Positions 2,899 to 46,275 of a stretch of DNA of 55,334 bases are shown here, in pieces (position 1 is the first letter of the stretch; the number at the start of each line of letters is the position of its first letter). This DNA is from Nymphon striatum (taxonomy: Eukaryota). Location: contig JABFOP010000807.1 in assembly GCA_016618385.1 (NCBI GenBank), positions 280,216 to 335,549 on the forward strand, read 5' to 3'. The position numbers and the translations under genes were made by a program. The notes beneath the pieces are model-generated. The model did no database searches. It was not told the origin of the DNA and worked only from the letters and a program-made list of their open reading frames with translations.

Positions 2899-5332
2899 TC
2901 TTTTACTGGGGGAGGCAGCTCGCTGCTTGTGGGACATGGGCGGTGCTTAACTGCTCCGATCGGAAAGGTGAATTGGCGTACCCACATTTTCAGCCAACTG
3001 AAAAAGGAACAACATTAAGTTTAAATCAGCAACCAATCTACCATTCCATTCTATCACAACCAACATGTTGATGTGCAGTACTGAAGCTGACTTTGTTGAG
3101 TTACTGAAATAGCTAATAAAGATGAGATGCTCTATTCAAAATTTATTCATAAAAATTGATTTAATTTTGTTCATTCTGCGAAAAAGTAAAGCCAAGAATA
3201 CAATTTTGGCCTTTTCAACTTTCAAAGATGTATTACAAATTTTAGCCGAAAGTTGAAGGTTATGAAAATACCTGATTTTAGAAGTTATCACTTACACATA
3301 CAATTAACAAAAAAAGTATATTATCAGCATTGATACGATGATAGTGAGAACATTTAAAATGATGAAACATACCATTATATGATGATGTATTACGCGTATT
3401 TGTCAGCATAATTTGATGAACTAATATAATTTTAATAAAATTTCAGTTTCCTTCGGCCATTTAACTATTTTAACATTGGTTCGACAGATGGCAGCACGTT
3501 CCGCTGATCCTCAGCTGATCCATCAACCAAACCAACCATCTAGTATTCTTGTTGTGGAGAAAATACCTGATAGTTTTATAATGTTTTCTTCTTGTGATTT
3601 TAAACAATTTGTTGTGCCTCTGAAGTGAATACTATATTGTCATGAAGTTTGCTGTTTGAGAAACTCAGTATGATATTTATTGTCTTTAAGGAATTCATTT
3701 CTATCGTGTCCTTCTAATGTTGTTCTTTTTTTTTTCATTTCTGCGAAAAAGCATGATCCAATTTTCAAATTAGAAATATGTGCTGCGTTAGTTATATAAC
3801 CTTGGACATTTTGTCACCATTTAAATGCACCAGTTAAATCACCGTTTAGTTGACGAAGAAGTTAATTAACTTTAAAATTAAAGATAATGTAATAAATAAC
3901 TGTGATTTTGATCAAGAATTGTATTATATGCCAATAATCAATATGTTAAGTTCATCAGTTATAAATGTTTAGCTGAATTGTCAGTCCTGAATCAGTTTAC
4001 CGTCTGAGTTGTTATGGAGGCAACTACATTTTTGTCACTTTTAAATAATTATTTGCCTTAATATCCCAGATAACTTCTTTAAATAGCTTGTAGCATCTCT
4101 TTGTTATTGTATTCATGTTCATAATTGTGAGTCAAATAATGTGATCTCAAAGAAAACATGCATTCAAGGTAATTCTCAAGATTTGAGTACTTTTTTGTTT
4201 CCACATTTTTTAATATTCTAAAACTCAATTTTATGAATCTAAAGTCAAATCTATACCTACCGAAGACCAAGCCCAACAATGGGACTTAGTATTATTTAAC
4301 ATATTGAAACAAAATATGCAATCATTCATTATTCATGAGACACACAAGTCGCGCTTGACCGCAAAGCGTACACCGTGAAACAAATCATCGTTTCTCCCGA
4401 AAATTATCGCAGGCGATGATATTTAGCAATACTGTTCATTAACTATTCCAGTTAATTCCTGTGTGTCAAATTTCATTCCAATCCGATCACTGGTTCTCAA
4501 AAAATCAATTCTTGAATGTCAGATGGTGAAAGTTGGACATAAATGTTTGTAGTGACTTAGAGGGCTAGGGGACAAACATTTTTGCAGCAACCTTAGAGGG
4601 TCACATTTTGACGATGTTTTGACACTCCTGAGATGTGTGGCGCAATCCGCCATTTTTAATTGCGCCCCTCGGCATTGGTTGCCAAAGGGAAATGGCCACC
4701 TAAGAGTGCTCAGTAACATTCAAGGCACATTTAATCCAGGTCTGATTTAATCGTAGATTCAATCGATGCTCATCTGCATTAACCTATCTTTGGAATACAT
4801 ATAATTTTGAAACTTCTAAATGTGAATCACACACTCTCAATAATTACAATGAATAATATTATATCTTCAAAAGTCTCTTTTTTATCTACACTTTTCTTAT
4901 GATACGTGTTTCAAAACACCTTTCTTCTATGATTTGCAATGTTTAATTTACATGAATCTTATTTTTCCTTAAACAGTTATTTATACCCTAACCTTCTTTG
5001 AGATATAGGTATCAAATGTTCAGGTAAAAGTAGCTGGTACTGATGTAGCTCAAGATAAGTGTATGATTTATTTCATCTTTTTCAGTCTTGTGTTAAAGGC
5101 AAGGTTAGAGTTTTCCATGATAACAGCAAATATTATTTCAGCGAGCCTTCTCTTAAATAGACAAAATCCCCTATTTAAACTAAGTTTTTCTTCCTTTGTT
5201 AGTTCTATTCTATTAACTTGAGTTATTTTGAACTTACGTAATTTGAACTGTTTTTATAATCGGAAATTAAAAATAGTATAATATCACCTTTTGCTCATAT
5301 TTGTTTATTTTCCAAATTTTAGTTTATTAGAA

Positions 5333-6249: not shown

Positions 6250-6545
6250 GAGTTGCGGTGGCTGAGTGGTTAAGATCATTATTCTGGGCCTGAAGAACCC
6301 AGGTTCGAATCTGATTCGAACCCCGCCACTTTTTTCACCGTTTACATTGTGTATTCTCGTACTCTCCTCTCTGATATTAGATGTAAGCTGATGTTAGAGA
6401 GAAAATACTCCATCCCTCGGATAGGACGTTAAATGGAGGTCCCGTGTAAAGGAGAGCCATACCCTCTACACGTTAAAGAACCCACTTCACTATTCGAACA
6501 AGAGTAGGGTGACAATTCCCGGTAAAGTGATACACTTGCATTACA
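6250..6545 (+). mobile_element. tRNA-derived SINE copy (tRNA-like head with a GGTTCGAATC box-B element, then a conserved body)
   Basis: The head carries GGTTCGAATC. The body is shared with copies at 8745-9175, 17095-17230, 44315-44765 and 54545-54775. Confidence 0.7.
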
Positions 6546-6731
6546 TAAAAAACAGATGTCTATCACAAGCGTCTATGCTAATGACATTGTCATGAGCAGT
6601 GGACTAGATAGATCCCCTTTTTGTCAGGAATAAAAATAAAAAAATAGAAAATAAAATAGAAATTTTCATATGCCTGAATTAAATTTGTTGATTAAGTTAA
6701 TGTTAACATATATTTATTCTAAATTTTGCAG

Positions 6732-6786
6732 TTTCTCTTCATGATGTTTACGAATCTGAGACATTCATCTTTTTAGTTTTTGAACT
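6732..6786 (+). CDS. PHKG: PHKG exon 3 (VSLHDVYESETFIFLVFEL)
   Basis: It starts at a ttttgcag acceptor and ends at a gtaaag donor. It matches PHKG IQLKDTYETNTFFFLVFDL. The phase is consistent with exon 2. Confidence 0.85.
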
Positions 6787-6865
6787 GTAAAGTATTCTAC
6801 GATTATATATTATCTTTTTTTCAACTTCGTTTGAAGTGTTTAATTGATATAATTTGCATTTATAG

Positions 6866-6931
6866 ATGCAAAAATGGAGAATTATTTGATTACTTGACAA
6901 CTGTCGTGACTTTTTCAGAGAAAAGAACCAG
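6866..6931 (+). CDS. PHKG: PHKG exon 4 ([22 protein letters not shown])
   Basis: It starts at a tttatag acceptor and ends at a gtaata donor. It matches [22 protein letters not shown]. Confidence 0.88.
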
Positions 6932-7150: not shown

Positions 7151-7241
7151 CCTGAGAACATTCTTCTTGATGATAGCTATAATGTCAAAGTTACTGATTT
7201 TGGATTTGCCAAAGTCTTGCATGAAGATGAAAAACTTATTG
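7151..7241 (+). CDS. PHKG: PHKG exon 6 (PENILLDDSYNVKVTDFGFAKVLHEDEKLI)
   Basis: It starts at a tttcag acceptor and ends at a gtgaga donor. It carries the PEN and DFG motifs. Confidence 0.9.
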
Positions 7242-28584: not shown

Positions 28585-29190
28585 TCAGTCTCACCTTAAT
28601 AATAATAATGTTTATCACATAATAGGGCGGTTATTCTACCGATCTCAGTGGACATAAAAATGGTATAAACACACGTGTAAAAACGTTTTTTAAAACGATT
28701 AACTTCTTAACGGTGAGAAATGTTTTTAATGGGCAACCGATTTTAAGTGACAATAATCTTGAACAATGACAAATGACTCTTAATAGTTTTCGTAATGGTT
28801 TTCCACTTTACTCAGATGTTTTTATTGCATTTGACTTGACCGGGTCCCCATTTTAATGGCTTGACCGGAGGGCTTCAATAGTGTCATTTAACTTATTTAC
28901 GATCATTTTAAAGAGGCGACAGACCGGAAAATGTTTATAATGATTTGGCCAGAGGGCTCTTTGATAAAACCTTACACTTTTCTTTATACATTTGTTATAG
29001 CTGAATCTATTTTAAATTAATTTAAATTAATTTTCAAAGCTATCTATTGATTATGTGATGTCCACGTCGTATACAGAATATATGACGGGCACTCATCACG
29101 TATCCTTTATATACTTTTTTCTTGAAACCGGTCCCTATATTCGAAAGAGGCAACCCCCCCCCCCCCCATAAAACAAATCCTGGATACGGG
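28585..29190 (+). repeat. About 600-bp interspersed repeat family copy 1 (cacataatagggcg ... acgattaacttcttaacggtgaga ... C15 tract)
   Basis: It is about 88% identical to 33785-34315. Partial copies lie at 40020-40170 (+) and 43795-44100 (-). It ends with a poly-C homopolymer. Confidence 0.75.
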
Positions 29191-33784: not shown

Positions 33785-34315
33785 AATAATAATGTTTATC
33801 ACATAATAGGGCGTGTAAAAACGTGTTATAAAACGATTAACGTCTTAACGGTGAGAGATGTTTTTAATGGGTGGTCGATTTTAAGTGACAATAATCTTGA
33901 ACAATGACAAATAGCTGTTAATAGTTTTCTTAATGGTTTACCACTTTACTCAGATGTTTTTATTGCGTTTGACTTGACCGGGGGCTTCAATGGTGTAATT
34001 TAATTTATTTACGAGCATTTTAAAGAAGCGACAGATCGGAGAATGTTTTTAATGATTTGGCCGGGGGCTCTTTGATAAAACCTTACAATTTTCTTTATAC
34101 ATTTGTTCAAACTGAATCTATTTTAAATTAATTTTAATTAATTTTCAAAGCTATCTATTGATTATTCGATAAACAGAATACCAAACTTGTCCACGTCGTA
34201 TACAGAATGTATGACGGGCACTCATCATGTATCCTCTATATACTTTTTTCTTGAAACCGGTCTCAATATTCAAAAGAGGCACCCCCCCCCCCATAAAAAA
34301 TCCTGGCTACGGGAA
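33785..34315 (+). repeat. About 600-bp interspersed repeat family copy 2
   Basis: It is a paralog of 28585-29190 and includes a C11 tract. Confidence 0.75.
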
Positions 34316-35962
34316 TGGACCTTCCTATCATCCCATCCACCGATGACACTTCAACATACACACAGCTTTTTCATGCTGGATTCTACTATATTATCTTCTG
34401 ATATTTTGAATATTTAGCAATGTTCGTATAAAAGTACAAAAGTACCAACAAAGAAACAATAAAACGATAAAATAAAACGATCTTATTCAATGGCTGAAAT
34501 TGAATTAGGGCCTCGGATACAGTCAACAGCCGTCCTTAAAAGACTGAAGCTGATTTTTCTTTAAATCCAAGCAGATGTCTGAAGATTAGAGAGGAAAGCA
34601 CGAGAACACAACATTTTCAATCATTTATGCTAAATTATATACTTAGGGGCCATTCAGAAATTACGTAACGCCGGAGGGGCGGGGTGTCCACCCTAGTGTT
34701 ACAGAGGATTGGGGGTGTTTGGCCAAGTGTTACATAACACCGTCAGGGTTGCCAGATTGGCATTTTTAAAGGGATACTCCACTCATCGGGTGTAGAAAAA
34801 AAAATTCCCAATCCATGGTTATAGTACGTATCGCTGGCTGGGAGCAAAAACGTCGTATTTACCATTTTTTTTCAATTATAAGTCTATAGCATAATCTTGT
34901 TTGGCAATGAACATGGATTCAATTTTTGCATGGACGATGTGATTTTCGTCCTTGGGAGTGACACTAGAAGAGGGAAAAAAGATCGTATGTGCCAGAATAT
35001 TCTTTTATTTAGAGTGAAAACATATCGTAACTGAATTGTTTGTGTGAATTCTTGTAAATAAGTTATGATGTTTTTGCTCTCAGCCAGCGATATATCAAAC
35101 AACAATTCCTGATTTGTAAACCTTTTTTATCTACTTATTTAATATTTTTAAACGTATTTTAAAATCACCTACTTTGGATATCACGGCAGCTGCCCACCAT
35201 ACAACCGCATTTATTCGAGCCAAGGAGAGGGTAAATGATGGTGATCAGTTTCGGCTCGAATACATACGGTTGTATCCCTCCTCCACTAGCCTAATTCTGA
35301 AAAGTATCCTCATCACTCGACGAATATATATAAGCGTCAGCCATCTTGATGAACTACTGAGCATTGAATGCACGTCACATATGACGTAACAGTCAGAAAT
35401 GGATGATGCTGTGATATCCAAAGTAAGTGATTTTAAAATACGTTTAAAAATATTAAATGAACTAGAAAATATTTCAAAAAATCAGGAATTGTTGTTTGAT
35501 ATATATCTATATTTATAATTCTCAAATTTAGTTCAACACATTTCCACCAGGATTCCTTACCTATTCGAATGCTCGGTTTTCTCCAAATTCAGTCTCTCCT
35601 GAGTCGCGTAGATCCGTCAACTTCTACACAATGCATGATAACTAAGTTGGAGTCGTCAAGTTGAAAACAAATTAATGATTCCTCCGTTGTTTTATATTTA
35701 ATTAATTAAATAAAACTCCTCAAGGTTTCGCCTGTGGCGCTGCTATCCGGTGTATGGAAGTTGTGACGATTTCTATATTTTAGTATATTTTTAAGAAAAT
35801 AATCAAAAATAATAAATAACCATTGCCATGAATATATTAATAATATTTATAAAGGTTTACAACACTTATTTTAAGAAAGAACTAGATTTAAACTAAATAT
35901 AGCCGTGTAAAATGTTGATGGTTCAATTCATACTGTAGCCATATGTTAATTTTTTCCCCGTA

Positions 35963-38900
35963 TAGTCCGGCAGCCAAACCCAATTTTAAGGCTTAACCCG
36001 GACTTGAGGTATTAACTTTTTTTGAATGCTGATATTTGTTCATTAGGACCTCTTCATTGAAAAACCAGATGATGCCACTTTGTCACCCTTGAGCAATTTG
36101 AGATAATTAGCATAATTAATAATGGACGCCAAATATTCATATTCCCCTTATGACGCCTGATACATTGCCACAGAAAGTATATAAATTGAATTCTAAACAT
36201 GTTTTCTTATCATTACTGAGTGAAAAGAGACTCTTGATCAATTTGGGATAATTAGCAGAATTCAAAATGGCCGCCAAATAGTCGTATTTTTATTTTGATA
36301 CCTTATACATTGCTATAGACAAGCATGTCAAGCTATATATTGTATTCGAAACATGTTTCATTATTATTACTGGTTTACATGAGACACTAGCTATATTTGT
36401 GATAATTATTAAAATTCAAAATGGCCGCCAAATATTCTTATTTACTCTTTTGATACCATTTAAATTTCTATAGACAAGCATTTCCGGCTGAAAATTATAT
36501 TAACAAGACATTTTATTACAAATGTTCTAAAGAAAATCTGAAGATTTTAATTAATCATATAAGCATAAATTTCTAGTCATCATCCTCGCTGACATCAGTG
36601 GGTCTTGTCATTCAATTTTGACAAGCATGGACCCTTGACAATTGCAAAATATAGTACATGAAAGTCCTGCCATTACATCCACATTTCTTTGAAATGCATG
36701 GTCCTATACTTTCGCAAGAACATTTAATTAAAGTAAGATATCCGAGATATCCTTAGGTGCGAAGGCCACATTGTCAGGAACAGTTATCGTTTGCAAGGTT
36801 CTTTCTTCTTTCTTGAATCCAAATAACTCTGGATCTAAACTGTCGGTATGAGGTCCAGGATTGCTTCCATATGCAGGCTTGTAAGTGGGCACGTTTAACA
36901 TTTTCCTTGAATGACTCATTGGTTGGTGGTAAGAGGTTAAACTTAGGTGTCCCAGTTTTAGTTTGTGCAGTTTTTGAAGCCCATACATCAAGTCTTACTT
37001 GTGACAATGACTCAGAATTAGGATTTCCATAACATACCAAATAAACTTAGTGGCATAAGGCAACACAGCTTCAATGTCAGAGTTAATGTCACCTAGGAGA
37101 TTTGGGTAGATACCAGACTTGGCCACTTTGAGAGCTCTAGTTTTGTCAATCCCATGACACTGAGCCACTGTGTCCCACCCTGATAAATGCATGAGTTGGC
37201 AAGATCATGTTCACATATGGTTTGTATTTCTTCACAGACTCCTGAATGTCAATGACACTACGACCTTTTTGTGGTGCTTCCATGTACATTCTGCTATTTA
37301 AGTTTAGTAAGTTGTAAAAGTTAAGTAGCAATACAAAGATATCAGTATCATCTGCTTCAACTTCAACTGACAGGTTACTTTCTGCTAACATCATTGCCTG
37401 TTGTACAGTCAGCTTCTTCATGTGATGTAGCAATGCAATGCCTCGTAACTACTTCTTTGTGAATCTCAACAGGAATTCCATCTTGGCTTGTTATAACTTG
37501 CTTTTCCTCTTGTGTGACTGCTCGTGGAATGATTTGTCACTTATTAGATGACTACCGATTAACCCAATCAGTTGCTTATTGTTTCCATCAACATTTAGGC
37601 TGACTTCTTTTGCTGGCAATTCAGAGTTTATCGTTGTGAGGTAGTGAATTTTACCAACACCAGAAGCTCTCCCACTTCGTGCTGCACTCTTTGTACTAAA
37701 GTTGAGATACCTATAAAATATTAGATACACATCACCATGTCTCAGTCTCCATTCAATAAGGCTCTTGAATCCAGCGCTTAAATCTGCTACTGTGCCCTTT
37801 GTTGGCCAGTTAGGAATCCAGATAAATGCTGATCCATCTATCACAGTAGCATCTATTAGAATAGTCCTAACAGATGTTTCCACTTGTAACCTCTTCAACT
37901 TCGCTCTATCTGTCATGAATCTTATAGCTCCTGAATCATTGAACATTGAAGTGGGCACAGGAGCCAGTTCATATGAAAAGAGGTCCTGAAGATTAAAATT
38001 ACGTGCACTCGCCTGAACACCAATTATTCTTGAATAAATCAATTCAATATCAAAGAGACGATCAGAGCCAACTGGAACATGTTTCTTCAATGTAACTAAG
38101 GTTTCAATCTTTTTATGAATAGTCCCATGAAATCCATTTGGCTAACTCTTTTCAAAGTTCTTGATTTCCCTTTCATCAATTTTCACAGACTCATGAGCAT
38201 TCACTGACGGAATGCAACCTGGCCAGTAACTACGTTAACTATTTCAGGTGGATGTTCATCTAGATTCAGTAGATCAAAACATAAGGAAATCTTCCTCCTT
38301 AAGTTATCTCTGTCTCTGCCATCTGAGTGAATGCTGGTATTGGACTCTTCATTTCAGTACTGCTCATTTGTCTTTCCTTCTGTAAGATTAGATACACCAT
38401 TTTCCAACTGGCTGCAGATGTGTAAGCTCAAAGCCCACATCTTCAGTGTGTTTGGTTTCAGTGTTACACCAATGATCACACTTTGACCTTTCCCGTAGCG
38501 CATAAATGTTGCCTCTATGAATTGATCACTCCAAATACTGTTCCAAATGCCGTCTCTGTCTCCATGCATTTCATAGAAATGTGGATGTAATGGCAGGACT
38601 TTCATGTACTATATTTTACAATTGTCAAGGGTCCATGCTTGTCAAAATTGAATGACAAGACCCACTGATGTTAGCGAAGATGATGATTAGAAATTTATGC
38701 TTATGTGATAAACTAAAATCTTCAGGTTTTCTTTAGAACATTTGTAATAAAATGTCTTCTTAATATAATTTTCAGCCGGAAATGCTTGTTTATAGAAATT
38801 TAAATGGTATCAAAAGAGTAAATAAGAATATTTGGCGGCCATTTTGAATTTTAATAATTATCACAAATATGGCTAGTGTCTCATTTAAACCAGTAATGAT

Positions 38901-39291
38901 AATAAAACATGTTTCGAATACAATATATAGCTTGACATGCTTGTCTATAGCAATGTATAAGGTATTAAAATAAAAATACGACTATTTGGCGGCCATTTTG
39001 AATTCTGCTAATTATCCCAAATTGATCAAGAGTCTCTTTTTACTCAGTAATGATAAGAAAACATGTTTAGAATTCAATTTATTTACTTTCTGTGGCAATG
39101 TATCAGGCGTCATAAGGGGAATATGAATATTTGGCGTCCATTATTAATTATGCTAATTATCTCAAATTGCTCAAGGGTGACAAAGTGGCATCATCTGGTT
39201 TTTCAATGAAGAGGTCCTAATGAACAAATATCAGCCTTCAAAAAAAGTTAATACCTCAAGTCCGGGTCCACCTCAGGTTCTGCCGGACTAG
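35963..39291. mobile_element. Long-TIR DNA transposon-like element: about 750-bp TIRs (35963-36720 and 38585-39291) with three subterminal tandem about 120-bp repeats (..aaatggccgccaaata..), termini tagtccggcag, possible 3-bp target-site duplication (TSD) GTA
   Basis: The arms are reverse complements over about 700 bp. Both flanks read GTA immediately outside the termini. The interior holds a minus-strand nuclease pseudogene. Confidence 0.75.
36728..38605 (-). pseudogene. FEN1/XPG-like (PIN-fold 5'-nuclease) family ORF, frameshifted, inside the long-TIR element
   Basis: Overlapping minus ORFs (37491-38090, 37146-37433, 36774-37040) encode IDATVIDGSAFIW, GDVYLIFYRY, EADDTDIFVLLL and a C-terminal NLLPPTNESFKENVKRAHLQ. 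It is a paralog of the + ORF at 40772-41997. Confidence 0.6.
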
Positions 39292-39522
39292 TAAATATTC
39301 TATGGCGGAATACATGGAATAGCAGCAGACTGCCATAGCAACTCAACTGCACAAGAAGGGAATTTGTTATTTAAACAGCGCAGTCAAGTTTTTAGTACGT
39401 ATTTTTTAAAGTTAATATTATTAAACGTTATAGGTAGAATAAGTAGGTTTTTTGAATAACTTTTAATGATAAAATGTATTGTGTAAAAACTGTAAAACTT
39501 AAAATCCTTTATCTACTGCGCT

Positions 39523-39744
39523 GTGTACACTTTTGAATGTGACTTGTGTGATGCAAGTTATGTTGGGTACAACCTTGGGTACAACACCACCCGACATCTC
39601 CATCAACGTAGACAATCACAACACAAATACTCTGCTATTGGGAAGCACTTAGAAACAAAATACAGTGTGGACAAGTCATCATCACCCATTGATCACCTGT
39701 TCAAATGTGCTGAAAAAAATGCAAGACCAAGTTTGACTGTCTAA
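39523..39744 (+). pseudogene. Penelope-like element GIY-YIG endonuclease fragment (FECDLCDASYVGYN..TTRHLHQRRQSQH...SAIGKHL)
   Basis: GIY-YIG-type motifs: C-x2-C, YVG, R.L..R..QH and SAI..H. It is an isolated 73-aa ORF. Confidence 0.5.
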
Positions 39745-40771
39745 TATACGAAATGTTCTACATCGGTCAAATGAAACCCAACTTGAACACCCAAAGTGAT
39801 TCTATTCGGGCGAAACTTTTTATTTGATTGTCTTTTTATATTTAATTTTGTTATTCAATTTTCAAGATGTCAGGTCACCTCAAAAGTTTTCTTTCTTTTT
39901 TTTACTTCTCTTCTTCTGCCTTACAGCTTTTTATTCAACTAATTTACATACTTGAAAAAGTTTTTGAAAGGTGCTTTCAAACCACTATTTCACATTTTAT
40001 TGAAGGAGATCCAATTTTATAACATAATAGAGTGATTATTCTACTGATCTCAGTTGACATAAAAATGGTATAAACACACTGTACGAATGTGTTATAAAAC
40101 GATTAACTTCTTAACGGTGAGAGATGTTTTTAATGGGTAACCGATTTAAAGTGACAATAATCTTGAACCAGGAGAATTTGGGGGAGATTTTTATTGTTCG
40201 GGGAAGTACTTTAATTTATGACCAATGACCAAGGCCAAGGCTCGCTGAAATAAAAAAGTAATTTCAGCTCGCCAAGGCTCGTTGAAAAAACAACATAGCC
40301 CGGGCGATTTGGGCGAAATTTTGCATGAACCTCAAACAAATTATTAACAACGTGAAACTTTCAGGAAATGTTCCTTACTACATTACTTTAGACATACTAA
40401 AACCCCACCGATCCCCAAGGGGTGGAACATCATTTTTTTTCACCTTGAATTTATTTAATTTTGCATTTTTTTTTGTCAATTTTGAGCTGGGGTAGGTCAC
40501 TTTAAAGGTGTATTGCCAGGTAACTACTTAAGATATTGAAGTGAAACTTGGCCAACATGTTTACCATAGGATGGGCAATGATTTTATGGGCTTAATAATA
40601 TCTGCTGACATCAGCAAAATTTGATGACGTCATCAAAATTCAAATTTTAATGATTTGTTGAATTTTCTTGATACCTGGAAGTTTTTTACTAACCAAAGTT
40701 AAACTTGTTTATAAATAAATAAAAATATTTATATCGAGGAAACGATTTTTAATTTTTCTAAAAAATATATA

Positions 40772-41997
40772 ATGACATCATCTTTTCTTAAGATTTCAAA
40801 ACTCAAAATACTACAAAGATATTTGACAAGATCCGTTCATTCACATCTCGTCCAAAATGTCGAATATATTGCCATCATTGTCAATGTCGTCTTCATTTAC
40901 AGTTTCCGTGGCTGTTCTCTAAAAGGAAATCATATTTTAGAATCGTCAGAATCGTCAGAAAAAGCTGATGTTGATCCAAACGCCTTGCATGTTCTTGATG
41001 GAGGAGCACTTTTGCACAAAGTTCGATGGTCCTACCAGCGTCACTTATAGAGAAGTTTGCGATCTTTATGTTAATCACATCAAATCAAAATATGGCATTG
41101 GTACAATTGTATTTGATGGATACATGGATGGACCATCTACTAAAGATCATGAACACGCAAGAAGAAGTCTCAACAAAAGAAGATGTGCAGATGTTCAATG
41201 TGATCTTTCAACAAAGGTCAATTTAAAACAAGATGTTTTTTTTATCGAGCATCACCAACAAATCTCGTTTGATTGACATGTTATCAACTTATTTAATCAA
41301 GTCTGGCAACAAAGTAATCAAATGTGACGAAGATGCAGACACCGAGATTGTTAGATGTGCATTATATGTTACAGAGACTGGAAGAAAAGTTAACGTAGTT
41401 GCAGACGATACAGATGTTGCTCTCTTACTTTTATACCATTGGAGTGAGAGTATGGAAGAAATTACATTTACTTCTGAGAGATCAAAAGCCACCTTTAATA
41501 TCACTTCTTCCTTATTGAAGATACCTGCTCAGATCAAATCATATCTTCTGGTCTTACACGCCTGGACTGGCTGTGACACGACATCTGCAATCCATTCGAA
41601 AGGAAATAATTCATTACTAAGGAAGTTAAAAACTTCTCAACACCTTCAAAGCTTGATGGATATTTTGAGTGACAAAAATGCTGATCAAGTAGAAGTTGGC
41701 GCAGCAGGAATCGAGTTGTTCTTGTACATGTATGGAGGAAATCAGACCTTGACTGAACTACGGTACGCATTTCCTTACTTTCCAGGAAAAAAAAACATTA
41801 GCATCTTGTTTGCAAGCTTAATGCTTGATATGTGCACTAGCAGATTTGTAATTTTTCTTATCTCAATATTCAATAATACTTATTTTTTAGCTACTACAAG
41901 TTTATGGATATGGCAGCTAAAGGTGAGATACTACCAGAAAACCTTCCACCAACAGAGCGAGCAGCAGTTCAACACAGTCTACGGGTCCATCAGCAAG
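40772..41997 (+). CDS. FEN1/XPG-like PIN plus H3TH nuclease-family ORF, second paralog (frameshifts; putative 128-bp intron 41763-41890)
   Basis: Motifs: HVLDGGALLHKVRW, GIGTIVFDGYMDGPSTKDHEH, VVADDTDVALLLLYHW and AWTGCDTTSAIHSKG (H3TH-like). After splicing GTACGC...TTTTTTAG the C-terminus reads ..TELRYYKFMDMAAKGEILPENLPPTERAAVQHSLRVHQQVVV*, which aligns to the minus copy's LPPT tail. Confidence 0.55.
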
Positions 41998-42721
41998 TAG
42001 TGGTATGACAAACGTATACGACGGGCACTCAACACGTATCCTCTATATATTTTGGCTGGTACTCTTCCATACTGATCGGACTAACCCGTCAGGGACGGGA
42101 CCCTCTAGTATACTATGGATTGGAAAACATTATGTTTTTTTTTTTTTTACACCTAATGAGTGGAGTATGCTTTTAACTTTAAGGCTACATTTTGCAATTT
42201 GGGCCTTTTTTAGAGTGATTTGGCCTGGAAAAATTGGGGGGAGGGTCATACTTTTGTTACGTAATTTTTTAGGAAAGGTGTGGTTAAGTGTCCATTTTGG
42301 CGAAAAAAAGCGTTACTTAATTTCTGAATGGCCCCTCATATGCTAAACAAACAATCGCAAACCTATCTATACTACATAGCGGTATTAATTTGTATTGCAG
42401 ATTGGGAAAAAAACAGTTTTGATTATTTCTAAAATACAGCTGCAAATATAGTATATAAAGCAAAAACAAATTCATACATTTTTACATGCTAATTTTAAAA
42501 TTTATATATAGAGGATACGTGATGGGTGCGTCGTATACAGAATATGTATGTGCTCGTAAACATTGCTGTTATTTTCAGCGAGCCTTGGTGAGCTAAAAAT
42601 AAATCAATGTTATAGCGAGTTTCATATATTCTGTATACGACGTAGTCGAGTTTGGTATTCTGTTTATCACATAATCAATGGATAAGTTTGAAAATTAATT
42701 AAAATGAAGTTAAAATAGATT

Positions 42722-43690
42722 CATAAATATTAAGGCCAGGGATATGGTTTTTAAAGCCATTTATTTTTTTATTAAAAAATAAAAACATAACAAACGTTTC
42801 GGCCATCTAGGCCATCATCAGTGAACAAAGATCAAATAAAACAAAATCGTAAAATATCCAACTTTAAAGAATTTTTTTTAAATGATATGCAGAAAGGAAA
42901 GAAAAAAAGAAAAGAATAAATAAAAATTCAGTTTAAGATTGCCAGCGGATAGGAAGAAAGTGTGTCGTTTAGTGAAGGTCGTTTTTTATATATGTGGATG
43001 CTTTCTAAAATTCTGAGTTCAATATCCGACTTAGCAGAACCAATAATTGCAAAATTTGAAAGAGTTATTTGACATTTGCAACTATTGGTATGCTGTCGAA
43101 TACTGCTGTGAGGTGGGTTTGAAAGGGGGTTGTTGGATCGAAAACTCTTACCAGCATGTTCTGCAACTCTCCTGTATAATTGTCTCTTGGTAGTACACCT
43201 GTCTCTTATATTGGTTCTACCAAGAGACAATTATACAGGAGAGTTGCAGAACATGCTGGTAAGAGTTTTCGATCCAACAACCCCCTTTCAAACCCACCTC
43301 ACAGCAGTATTCGACAGCATACCAATAGTTGCAAATGTCAAATAACTCTTTCAAATTTTGCAATTATTGGTTCTGCTAAGTCGGATATTGAACTCAGAAT
43401 TTTAGAAAGCATCCACATATATAAAAAACGACCTTCACTAAACGACACACTTTCTTCCTATCCGCTGGCAATCTTAAACTGAATTTTTATTTATTCTTTT
43501 CTTTTTTTCTTTCCTTTCTGCATATCATTTAAAAAAAAATTCTTTAAAGTTGGATATTTTACGATTTTGTTTTATTTGATCTTTGTTCACTGATGATGGC
43601 CTAGATGGCCGAAACGTTTGTTATGTTTTTATTTTTTAATAAAAAAATAAATGGCTTTAAAAACCATATCCCTGGCCTTAATATTTATAA
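42722..43690. mobile_element. Perfect palindrome (about 480-bp arms, about 20-bp spacer at 43196-43216) formed by head-to-head Penelope-like element 3' ends
   Basis: 42722-43195 is the reverse complement of 43217-43690. Each arm encodes an identical 100-aa GIY-YIG ORF (42928-43230 - and 43180-43482 +: YIGSTKRQLYRRVAEHAG ... SSIRQH ... ILESIHIYKKRPSLN). Confidence 0.85.
43180..43482 (+). CDS. Penelope-like element GIY-YIG endonuclease domain ORF (one of the two inverted copies)
   Basis: It carries the YIG.T.R.L..R..EH ... S.I..H ... LE..HI.....LN signature. The mirror copy lies at 42928-43230 on the minus strand. Confidence 0.7.
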   Translation: MSLGSTPVSYIGSTKRQLYRRVAEHAGKSFRSNNPLSNPPHSSIRQHTNSCKCQITLSNFAIIGSAKSDIELRILESIHIYKKRPSLNDTLSSYPLAILN

Positions 43691-43794
43691 TTCGACTGGT
43701 GTCTACCAGAAATATCTCCATTCACTAAAATAGATTCAATTTAAATGAAAGTGTAAAATGTTTTAGCATAAAATAACACATTTCTTCCCCAGGC

Positions 43795-44100
43795 AGTCTT
43801 CGTTTAAAAGGGGACATTTAAAGAGGCCATTAACAAAATCACTCTTGTTACTTCAAAACATAGGTATTTTAGAATATTATTGAAGCACTCCCCCTCCCCC
43901 GGCAAGCCATTAAAAGGGGGACTGAAAACTATTAAGAGCCATTTGTCATTGTTTAAGATTATTGTCACTTTAAATCGGTTACCCATTAAAACATCTCTCC
44001 CCGTTTAGCAGTTAATCGTTTTATAACACGTTTTTACACGTGTGTTTATGCAATTTCTATGTCCACTGAGATCAGTAGAATAAATGCCCTATTATGTGAT
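43795..44100 (-). repeat. Partial inverted copy of the about 600-bp interspersed repeat family
   Basis: It is the reverse complement of 28585-28900-type sequence (..cccattaaaacatctctc.ccgtt.agcagttaatcgttttataacacgtttttacacg..). Confidence 0.7.
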
Positions 44101-44314
44101 AAACTTTTTTGGTATATCTTTTTATTATGTTTTATTAATTGTGTATACATTTTTTATACATTTTATGTATATGTATGGCTAGCCTATGTAAGCCAATTTT
44201 TATCTTGAATTATAAAAAAAAAAGTAAAAAAAGAAGCAAATTGATGGATGCATCATCATTATTTAACAAAATTTTAAATCGTTTATCATACATTTACCAC
44301 TTTTTAACCTACCA

Positions 44315-44765
44315 CTTTTCTGTTAGAACTACAAGCCATGGTGGGCGAGTCCTATTTCTCACACCGCAGTCAAGAATAGGCGTTCCTCGCAGGTGCTACA
44401 CTCCACCGGGATCACCCTATTCTTATCACCCTACATAACCCTACCACTTTTTCACCCTTTACGTTGTGTATTCTCGTGCTCTCCTCTCTGATACTGGATG
44501 CAGGCTGGTTTTAGAGAGAAAATATTCCAGTCCCTCGGATAGGACGTTAAGTGGAGGTCCCGTGCAAAGGAGAGTCATGCCCTCTGCACGTTAAATAACA
44601 CACTTCACTATTCGAATAAAGAGTAGGGTGATCCCGGTGGAGTGTAGCACCTGCGAGGAACGCCTATTCTTGACTGCGGTGTGAGAAATAGGACTCGCCC
44701 ACCATGGCTTGTAGTTCTAACAGAAAAGCACTGCATTCAGTCGGATGGAAACGGCCTCCAGCTTG
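44315..44765. mobile_element. Head-to-head SINE pair forming an about 450-bp quasi-palindrome
   Basis: 44320-44420 is the reverse complement of 44625-44725. The central 44440-44620 is the SINE body in plus orientation. Confidence 0.65.
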
Positions 44766-44884
44766 CCATAAACCCATGCGAGTTTAGTGCAATAAGGTTT
44801 TAAAAAAAAAAAAAAAACAAAACAAAAAAATCGTTTAATCTGGTATGGACACTATGTCTAGAGTATACTCCTATAATATATACT

Positions 44885-46275
44885 AATAGGCTTTATCACA
44901 CAACCTTGGCGTTATTGCATGCATAGAGTACCAAAGTGTGACGTCACTTTTCAGGCCTGGACCGCAAACTATTTTCAGCCCAGCTATTTTCCCATAGGAG
45001 ATTTTTGCTTAATCTTTCTTTCGTTATTTTCACCGAAATTTCGCACAGTTTTGTTGGTAAAAGTTTATTTTGGTCATTTGTGATACGAAAATGTGTCATT
45101 TTTATTGATTTTTCATTCGTTGTTTGCGTCGCAGCTTCAAATTATAGATAATTGAGTAGTCCCAGAGACCTGATATATATACAAGCATGGGTCAGTGTTT
45201 CGTGACAACATAAAATCACATAAGAAATTTTACAGAAATAAGAACATAACATTTTTCTATAGAATACTAATTAACCACAATGAAAAAACATGTAATTAAT
45301 CATAAATGAGAACAAAAATATATAAAAATAATTCTGACTTTCTGATTGATCAGTCAGGAGCGAAACACTGAGCCATATTAAACGGTCTCTCAACCTACTC
45401 AAGCCGACTCAACTATTAATTTGAAGCTGCGAGGTAAACAACGAATGAAAAAAGCAATATAATGTCACATTTTCGTATCACAAAGGACCAAAATAAACTT
45501 TTACCAACAAACTGTGCGAAATTTCGGTGAAAATAACGAAAGAAAGATTAAATAAAAATCTCCTATGGGAAAATAGCTGGGGTGAAAATTTTTTGCGGTC
45601 CAGGCTTGAAACGTGACGTCAGCACTTTGGTACTCTATTTGTGGGTTGTATATTTATTGTATTAGGACACGTCCGTATATCGTTATCGTATCGTACACGT
45701 TCTATATTGGTGTCCGATTACAGACACAGGAAGTCTGAGATTTTGAATCTTACCTACCACGAATTTATTTTCCTTTTGTTATATACGCCGCTTACAGAAA
45801 AAGCCGCTTCTCTAGTTTCACTTATCTAGGCGTGACTCACTTTTGTTTATATCGTAACGCATCTTTCTCTCTTTCTCTCTTTCTCTCTTTCTCTCTTTTC
45901 TTTTCTCTTCTTTTTTTTCTTCTTCTTCTCTTCCTCTCTCTATTTCATACTTTCTAACCGAGTTCTCGGATTTCATTAAATGTTTGAAACTCAATAGCCT
46001 ACATATTTCCTTTTCTTCACAATTTAATTTTTTTTTTTTTTTTTAGCTTGACTGGCACAAAATGAATCAATTTTAAAATCTATTTTAATGAATAAATTCA
46101 TTTTTGAAGCTACCTGTAGGTTGTGCGATAAACAGAATATAAAATTCGTGCCCGTTGCTTATGAGATATATGGAACTCGCCAACTTAGTTTTAATTTCAG
46201 CTCGCCAAGAAATGACAAAGTTGACTTGTTCCATATATCTCGTAAGCAACGAGCACTCATTCCATATCCTCTATT
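44885..46275 (+). repeat. Interspersed repeat (paralog of 29750-30330) containing a nested TA-flanked MITE and a long (TC)n-rich tract
   Basis: It is collinear with 29750-30330 apart from the insertion at 44926-45635 and one about 50-bp indel near 46185. Confidence 0.75.
44926..45635. mobile_element. Tc1/mariner-like (Stowaway-type) MITE with about 230-bp near-perfect TIRs and TA target-site duplication (TSD)
   Basis: TA occurs at 44924-44925 and 45636-45637. The termini gagtaccaaagtgtgacgtcac are inverted. The paralogous site at 29795 is empty (gcatgcaTAggggg). Confidence 0.75.

Follow-up and report, generated by a model that had tools for sequence, protein, structure and literature searches.

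Two Inverted Nuclease-Like Reading Frames of the Sea Spider Nymphon striatum as Very Probable Remnants of AcademX Transposons

Two nuclease-coding stretches, situated about 1 kb apart in opposite orientation, were analyzed in 55,334 nt of DNA of the sea spider Nymphon striatum (assembly GCA_016618385.1, contig JABFOP010000807.1, positions 280,216 to 335,549). This whole stretch is called the window below and is numbered from its first letter. Both the minus-strand copy (element 35963-39290) and the plus-strand copy (40296-42014) are very probably what is left of dead cut-and-paste DNA transposons that belong to the AcademX lineage of the Academ superfamily. The two inserted independently of each other and stem from AcademX families that diverged anciently; neither copy is derived from the other, and they are not host paralogs. 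A preliminary description of this DNA spoke of inverted paralogs, one intronless and the other with a 128-bp GT-AG intron. The intron is upheld, being found in the same codon and phase in four relatives, whereas the paralogy is not, the copies belonging to two families with 25-28% identity.

The window is AT-rich eukaryotic DNA (30-40% GC), and the surroundings of both copies are a patchwork of repeats. The best matches of the conceptual proteins from both copies are N. striatum protein models (up to 96-97% identity), and multiple Nymphon paralogues are 67-97% identical. Between the minus and plus copies identity is only about 25-28%, so that they are no local duplication; they belong to two separate AcademX lineages. 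A single composite inverted duplication is rejected as well, since the families differ and each copy has termini of its own.

Both copies share one architecture, in which an XPG/EXO1-like 5' nuclease precedes an LPPT helix; in relatives a Cys8 zinc finger comes next. Frameshifts and stops are found in both by a hidden Markov model (HMM) frame walk. The transposase catalytic core is absent from both; the minus copy retains about 24 aa of that domain and the plus copy none. No functional protein can now be formed from anything in the window, and domestication is not indicated for either copy.

Nuclease homology and fold

Comparison of the minus copy with the plus copy by tblastx gave E values of 0.029 (ADDTD motif) and 0.94 (LPPT tail). 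The preliminary description had proposed pairwise alignment as the check and a non-significant tail as its refutation; the tail value comes close to the latter, and it is profiles that provide the homology. The HMM of non-Nymphon relatives of the minus copy assigns 101.8 bits (E 1.6e-33) to the spliced plus copy versus 88.6 bits to the unspliced one. With the HMM of intronless plus-copy relatives the scores are 353.3 bits spliced and 306.6 bits unspliced, the tail being aligned only in the spliced version. The gain from splicing thus amounts to 46.7 bits with the plus-family HMM and 13 bits with the minus-family HMM. The minus tail alone matches the plus-family HMM at E 6e-10. When 37 sequences from both lineages are aligned, neither proline of the LPPT motif varies, and L and T are conserved in at least 90% of the sequences. 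Pairwise comparison being too weak, it is these profiles that are decisive for the homology of the two copies.

When the conceptual proteins and intact homologues were scanned against Pfam, no significant family was revealed, but only sub-threshold matches to DUF6589, PIN_4, NYN and TCR. The Pfam XPG family gave no match to them at any threshold, and the NYN/PIN traces were weak. The literature on the DUF6589 and PIN-like/tesmin/transposase leads gave nothing.

A profile of the 37 homologues, compared with PDB, matches the catalytic domain of human EXO1 (E 4.6e-6, about 200 residues) in an alignment spanning the acidic motifs VFDG..SK..R..RR, EAD, DSD and GCD..GIG. The AlphaFold2 model of an intact homologue (P0100; mean pLDDT 89.6, pTM 0.85) finds XRN1/2, EXO1, FEN1, Rad2/XPG, GEN1 and T5 flap endonuclease in Foldseek. 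The encoded protein is predicted from this profile and model to have an XPG/EXO1-type 5' nuclease fold. Homology of the two stretches as members of a nuclease family, claimed at the outset, is therefore confirmed by the EXO1 profile match, the P0100 fold model and the HMMs.

Past the nuclease, the 37-sequence alignment contains a conserved helix, LPPT..A...N..RAHLQ..W, and then a Cys-rich module, CxCx5-6Cx4CxCx6Cx3CxC. The consensus of the Cys8 finger in relatives is CxCxSxxCxTxRCxCxxxxLCxxFCxC. Conservation of the LPPT tail had been taken as a sign of real expressed proteins and not random open reading frames (ORFs). It does mark a real family, but both window copies are dead fragments.

The AcademX domain shares its fold, the acidic active-site motifs and the helix-turn-helix-like element GCD(T/Y)..GIGK with the cellular 5' nucleases of the XPG/Rad2, FEN1, EXO1 and GEN1 types. 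The relation to them is remote, identity in structural alignments being only 10-14%. Unlike the cellular enzymes, it forms one protein with a transposase and a Cys8 finger, by fusion, and occurs in many copies bounded by terminal inverted repeats (TIRs). It is not an orthologue of any repair gene. Whereas a host XPG, FEN1 or EXO1 orthologue would be a single-copy intact gene with close similarity to a member of a cellular family, a multi-copy family was found here, with frameshifts in both copies.

AcademX affiliation and structure of the elements

AcademX elements combine a transposase with an XPG nuclease and with a Cys8 finger (Kojima 2020, PMC7165386), often, but not always, in a single long ORF (PMC7165386). 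In animals they generate 3-bp target site duplications (TSDs), and their termini have a pyrimidine as the first base and a purine as the last (PMC7165386). Academ TIRs sometimes exceed 500 bp, and the published spacing between the catalytic Asp residues ranges from 138 to 192 aa (PMC7165386). Academ and AcademX are already known from Arthropoda and Cnidaria (PMC7165386).

Four reference Academ transposase domains from Data S3 of PMC7165386 (Academ-2_HM, Academ-3_SP, Academ-1_AP, Academ-1_Ami) find matches (combined E as low as 2e-46) upstream of the nuclease in relatives of each of the two copies. These are L002 and L003 (the latter from Porites lobata) for the minus copy and L004 and L001 for the plus copy. 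Longer homologues extend N-terminally (P0103 has 840 aa), and in L002 a contiguous 677-aa ORF precedes the homologous ORF, about 1350 aa in total. The 677-aa ORF contains the motifs VVVDNFD, TADLQLY, LGGMH and AEREADW. In an autonomous element one large protein thus carries a DDE transposase domain, the XPG/EXO1-type nuclease and the Cys8 finger in this order, and the nuclease-family gene of the preliminary description corresponds to its C-terminal half. The catalytic Asp residues are separated by 175 aa in L002 and by about 168 aa in L004, within the published range, and are followed by GxxH in each case.

All complete elements examined (4/4) start with TAGTC and have matching 3-bp flanks: GTA in the window, TGT in L002, TAT in L004 and TAG in L003. 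The chance of four such flank matches is about (1/64)^4, the boundaries being fixed by the shared terminal motif. An upstream transposase domain (in relatives of both lineages), the XPG nuclease, the Cys8 finger, the 3-bp TSD and the terminal bases of AcademX were all found. Common to these elements and to AcademX as described are the animal 3-bp TSDs, the pyrimidine/purine termini and TIRs of hundreds of bp. The window copies differ in being non-autonomous or truncated remnants without the DDE core, in both of which an inverted duplicate of the element's own 3' end replaces the 5' half. A further difference, confined to one sub-lineage, is a conserved intron in the nuclease-to-finger region.

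Several points weigh against this affiliation. The DDE core is kept in neither window copy, so membership in the superfamily rests on relatives from other assemblies together with the termini and the TSD. The right terminus and TSD of the plus-strand fragment are missing, and this insertion is therefore not fully delimited. Errors of the assembly could account for some of the frameshifts, for instance that in a T-run near 41230.

Alternatively, the copies could be paralogues of a host gene for an XPG/EXO1-like repair nuclease, either lineage-specific or domesticated, that underwent an inverted duplication, with an intron in one of the two copies. The fold and catalytic motifs of cellular 5' nucleases would agree with this, as would the many such models listed as proteins in the Nymphon annotation. 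However, several of these 'gene' names belong to chimeric annotations of transposon fragments with host genes, and the family is multi-copy (67-97% identity). Truncation and frameshifts affect both copies, TIRs and a 3-bp TSD delimit the minus copy, and relatives carry the Academ transposase domain upstream in the same ORF. An origin from host genes is highly improbable in view of these data. A Penelope-like retroelement was also considered and rejected: GIY-YIG-like ORFs lie nearby, but outside both AcademX elements, and no reverse-transcriptase or GIY-YIG Pfam match was found in the conceptual proteins of either copy.

At 35963-39290 the minus copy forms a complete insertion, that of an AcademX derivative which is non-autonomous. 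It has 739-nt inverted arms with TAGTCCGG termini and is flanked by a 3-bp target duplication, GTA, read from the sequence on the left (35960-35962) and, in identical form, on the right (39291-39293). The element starts with TAGTCCGGCAG... and ends with ...CTGCCGGACTA. The left arm (35963-36701, minus strand) is the genuine 3' end of the element in gene orientation. It comprises the terminus TAGTCCGGCAG, three subterminal repeats of about 150 nt, the 3' untranslated region and the last ~100 nt of the ORF, with part of the Cys8 finger. The right arm (38562-39290, plus strand) is an inverted duplicate of this 3' end; because the left arm covers the end of the ORF, the right arm holds some of the Cys8-coding sequence as its reverse complement. 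At the 38561/38562 joint it abuts the truncated ORF directly. The ungapped core of the arms is 706 nt long (35996-36701 versus 38562-39267, 97% complementary), and gapped alignment carries the arms out to the TAGTCCGGCAG termini.

Each of the three ~150-nt subrepeats of an arm contains AATGG(C/A)CGCCAAATA. In the L002 arms the subrepeats are about 163 nt long and contain GATGGCCGCCAAAAC. The motif GATGCCAC(C/T)TTGTCACCC is common to the arms of the window minus element, L002 and L003. The AcademX TIR arms contain tandem subrepeats of 145-165 nt with a conserved (A/G)ATGGCCGCCAAA core; these subrepeats and the shared motifs were noted at 36121-36434 and 38829-39142 of the window, at 6354-6891 and 12769-13487 of L002 and at about 7162-7197 and 13449-13482 of L003. 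The terminal sequence TAGTCC(G/A)G..GCCAAACC is common to the sea-spider element, L002 (from an ENA assembly) and L003 (from the coral). Both the subterminal repeat motifs and the terminal motif are candidate transposase-binding sites.

The element contains a decayed, 5'-truncated AcademX ORF remnant (36612-38563, minus strand), matched by tblastn with P0103 and P0104 (combined E down to 4.8e-120). At the position that corresponds to the intron of the plus copy, this remnant has none. Its homologous span runs from 38563 to 36615. The remnant begins with the last ~24 aa of the transposase domain (GDRDGIWNSIWSDQFIEATFMRYG, 38563-38492), followed by a linker and by the XPG/EXO1-like nuclease region (about 37847-36861), which ends with the LPPT helix (36935-36861). 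The Cys8 zinc finger is at 36731-36615, its later positions being decayed. There are at least four frame changes, and in-frame stops occur in every major aligned segment of the HMM frame walk. Catalytic positions are changed as well (VFDRY to IFYRY, GCDT to GWDT). At least one frameshift, yielding the KMLNVPTYKPAYGS reading, is found also in the Nymphon models P0123 and P0134. The recurrence of this frameshift in several Nymphon copies suggests amplification in trans of a defective master.

In the minus copy the DDE core and the rest of the 5' half have thus given way to a second, inverted version of the element's own 3' end, which accounts for the 739-nt arms. Such derivatives could arise through aberrant gap repair or template switching between identical inverted termini. 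In the simplest explanation of the layout, the left broken end would prime on the right TIR, which is identical and inverted, during repair of the excision gap, and the two growing strands would then be joined. The derivatives would later be mobilized in trans. Foldback-like deletion derivatives of cut-and-paste transposons with long inverted repeats, in which an inverted copy of the other end takes the place of the 5' part, likewise keep a normal TSD. The window copies resemble them in the very long arms around a partial ORF and in the normal TSD; the mechanism given here is a proposed one. To our knowledge, inverted-3'-end derivatives have not been documented for Academ.

The long arms might also be the normal TIRs of the Nymphon families, with the end of the ORF inside the TIR and the window copies formed by simple internal deletion. 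This is rather unlikely. Academ TIRs can indeed exceed 500 bp, and the arms of L002 and L004 reach about 400-800 nt and contain subrepeats, but in these two elements they end well outside the ORF. Both window elements have the same layout, as natural TIRs would predict; the arm of the minus copy, however, ends exactly at the truncation joint, which argues for the duplication of the 3' end described above.

The plus copy has lost its right end and has the same kind of layout, a nuclease region truncated at its 5' side to which an inverted 3' end is joined. Its left arm (40296-40915, minus strand) is an inverted copy of the 3' end of its own family and starts with the terminus TAGCCCGGGCGATTTGGG at 40296, the single occurrence of this sequence in the window. 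Positions 40915 to 40844 of the minus strand encode TATETVNEDDIDNDGNIFDILDEM, followed by a stop at 40843-40841. This peptide matches the C-terminus of P0002 (aa 339-362) at 100%. Within the arm, 40328-40429 matches the TIR of L004, and 40594-40654 matches the 3' flank of L001 in inverted orientation. About 40 nt of filler separate the inverted duplicate from the 5'-truncated nuclease region, which starts at 40958.

The nuclease remnant upstream of the intron (40958-41762, plus strand) is 96% identical to the Nymphon model P0001. The tblastn segments lie in three frames, with two 1-nt frameshifts, near 41032 and near 41230, the latter in a T-run. In the preliminary description the plus-strand homology began at 40772. 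It begins at about 40958, the ORF stretch 40772-40930 being spurious, as it is an opposite-strand reading of the inverted C-terminal fragment. The limits of the minus remnant (38563 to 36615) were likewise revised.

The second exon remnant, delimited by homology search, occupies 41891-42014 (plus strand) and reads YYKFMDMAAKGEILPENLPPTERAAVQHSLRVHQQVVV, then a stop, then QT. The stop results from TGG to TGA at 42006-42008, where relatives have Trp. Homology ends at 42014, at which position an unrelated multi-copy repeat starts. The Cys8 finger is missing from the truncated plus copy and present in its relatives L001 and L004. A search for the terminal motif found no right terminus of the plus element in the window. 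The inverted pair 40013-40176 / 43943-44106 was considered as its TIRs and rejected, being an unrelated repeat that occurs also at 28611 and 33814.

The 128-nt intron of the plus copy

A spliceosomal-type phase 2 intron of 128 nt (41763-41890, plus strand; GTACGC...TTATTTTTTAG) is predicted inside the conserved Arg codon of ..LTELR^YYKF.. (the sign ^ marks the splice position). The plus-strand frame departs from homology past ..YGGNQTLTELR at 41762, and homology is resumed at 41891 as YYKFMDMAAKGEILPENLPPTERAAVQHSLRVHQQVVV. The Arg codon is split past its second base (CG^..^C), and the interval has a T-rich tract and AG at its 3' end. The earlier statement that the homologous tail is regained only if 41763-41890 is spliced out is borne out by the HMM scores and by the frame. 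So is the contiguity of the minus copy at its tail, where the minus-strand ORF 36774-37040 (..CYGNPNSESLSQVRLDVWASKTAQTKTGTPKFNLLPPTNESFKENVKRAHLQ..) is unbroken.

Five elements, compared as DNA, have this Arg codon split in an identical phase, with four complete introns and one donor. The window intron has the donor CG^GTACGC and the acceptor TTTTTTAG^C. The intron of L004 (8870-9274, 405 nt) has the donor AG^GTATGC and the acceptor TTCAG^G, and that of L006 (4155-4422, 268 nt) has AG^GTTAGT and TATAG^A. In L001 (1682-1811, 130 nt) the acceptor is CAG^C and the donor is TT instead of GT, presumably owing to mutation in a dead copy. The L005 intron starts at 3951 with the donor AG^GTAAGT, then passes into a microsatellite, and its acceptor is not seen.

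The intron-bearing proteins are only 42-70% identical to the window copy, and the introns vary from 128 to 405 nt and are unrelated in sequence. An intron situated at the same codon and phase in such diverged elements is old and lineage-wide, not a local insertion. Splicing restores LR(Y/H)xK(F/Y)(M/L)(D/E)M...LPP(T/S)E in 4/4 complete cases. Fifteen ORF-called homologues drop homology within a few residues of the intron site. In several of these ..LRY is followed by unrelated residues, as would result if a GTAY donor were read through. LRY and YKF are joined (LRY^YKF) in all of the N. striatum gene models.

More distant members (33-48% identical, e.g., P0022 and P0027) are intronless at the site, as is the whole minus lineage. 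Neighbour-joining analysis of the nuclease region groups the sequences with the intron in a single clade nested among intronless ones, and the intronless minus lineage is the outgroup. Judging from these comparisons, the 128-nt interval can be regarded as a genuine old intron of the sub-lineage of the plus copy, for which a single old gain in this AcademX sub-lineage would be the simplest reading. The minus lineage never had the intron.

Three reservations apply to the intron and its single gain. The donor of L001 is TT and not GT. Bootstrap support for strict monophyly of the intron-bearing clade is only 45/100. Splicing at 41762/41891 is a prediction from sequence.

That the 128 bp at 41763-41890 are a recent insertion (a small transposon or filler DNA) and not an intron is very improbable. 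The copy is dead, and the 4-nt sequence CTAC is present on both sides of the interval, as a recent insertion would allow; yet L001, L004, L005 and L006 are interrupted at the same codon and phase, all but one with a polypyrimidine tract and canonical GT..AG ends. Comparison of 40500-42300 with the window by self-blast and a repeat scan of 39200-45500 reported neither a second copy nor terminal repeats of the interval, which also argues against a recently inserted transposon, and the LRY^YKF join of the Nymphon models is likewise at odds with it.

There is hardly any probability that the minus copy, being intronless, was retro-processed from a gene with an intron. No break occurs in it where the plus copy has its intron, as would be true of a retrocopy; however, the whole minus lineage is contiguous there in other species too, in elements with full TIRs (P0100-P0139, L002, L003), and the intronless state is the outgroup condition in the tree. 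Retrocopies are marked by poly(A), a long variable TSD, lack of TIRs and an intron-containing parent. The minus copy is flanked instead by inverted arms and a 3-bp TSD, with no poly(A) tail or long target duplication, and this excludes retro-processing. Of the two origins offered in the preliminary description, a retro-processed derivative and an acquired insertion, neither fits, the former because of the TIRs and TSD of the minus copy and the latter because the intron is lineage-wide.

It is quite improbable, the two ideas being taken jointly, that the conserved phase 2 intron, which lies between the nuclease core and the LPPT helix with the Cys8 finger in proteins diverged to about 42% identity, might be kept for regulation rather than by inertia and/or that the inverted-3'-end layout of both copies could be no coincidence but a by-product of Academ transposition chemistry, with hairpin or flap intermediates processed by the XPG-like nuclease. 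In the former case, intron retention would end the protein before the LPPT helix and the zinc finger and give a truncated isoform, a possible repressor or a means of tissue restriction. Such a role would be analogous to that of the third intron of the Drosophila P element.

In L005 the conserved intron is invaded by a microsatellite of about 0.55 kb with (TTATTG)n-like units (3951-4640).

Annotation and neighbouring repeats

Fragments of the AcademX nuclease are present under host-gene names in the N. striatum models P0001, P0005, P0031, P0109 and P0164, a set named after 4-hydroxy-2-oxoglutarate aldolase, prolyl 4-hydroxylase alpha-2, heparan sulfate 2-O-sulfotransferase, Y-box factor and synaptotagmin-7. 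Models that combine such names with AcademX nuclease fragments are chimeric annotations. In P0157 fragments of both AcademX lineages are fused to a GIY-YIG-like piece. Both stretches of the window, together with many N. striatum "hypothetical proteins" and the chimeric models, would be better masked as AcademX remnants.

Academ is among the least characterized superfamilies, and the gain from the present data is modest. The pycnogonid AcademX families, the terminal TAGTCC motif common to the sea spider and the coral, the subterminal repeat motifs and the old intron of one sub-lineage are new. None of them alters the understanding of how such elements work, and they would not surprise a transposon specialist.

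A near-perfect hairpin lies within 42718-43693, its arms (42863-43196 and 43214-43547) being 99% complementary, with 17 nt of spacer between them. An identical 100-aa peptide is encoded on either strand (ORFs 42928-43230, minus, and 43180-43482, plus), starting with ..YIGSTKRQLYRRVAEH.., for which only a sub-threshold GIY-YIG match was obtained (E 0.0087). The hairpin may be an inverted pair of Penelope-like element fragments. Between the AcademX elements there is a 73-aa ORF (39523-39744, plus strand; ..CDLCDASYVGYNLGYNTTRHLHQR..), GIY-YIG-like by eye and with no Pfam match.

A dispersed repeat of about 165 nt is found at 40013-40176, 28611-28772 and 33814-33910 and, inverted, at 43943-44106, the copies being 86-89% identical. 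A repeat resembling miniature inverted-repeat transposable elements occupies 42014-42538 and has 26-nt inverted ends (42025-42050 and 42504-42529). It begins exactly at the end of the homology of the plus-copy ORF, and pieces of it are present at about 29079, 34210 and 50934. An inverted pair of 110 nt (44315-44424 and 44619-44728, 99% complementary) lies farther downstream, its members 194 nt apart.

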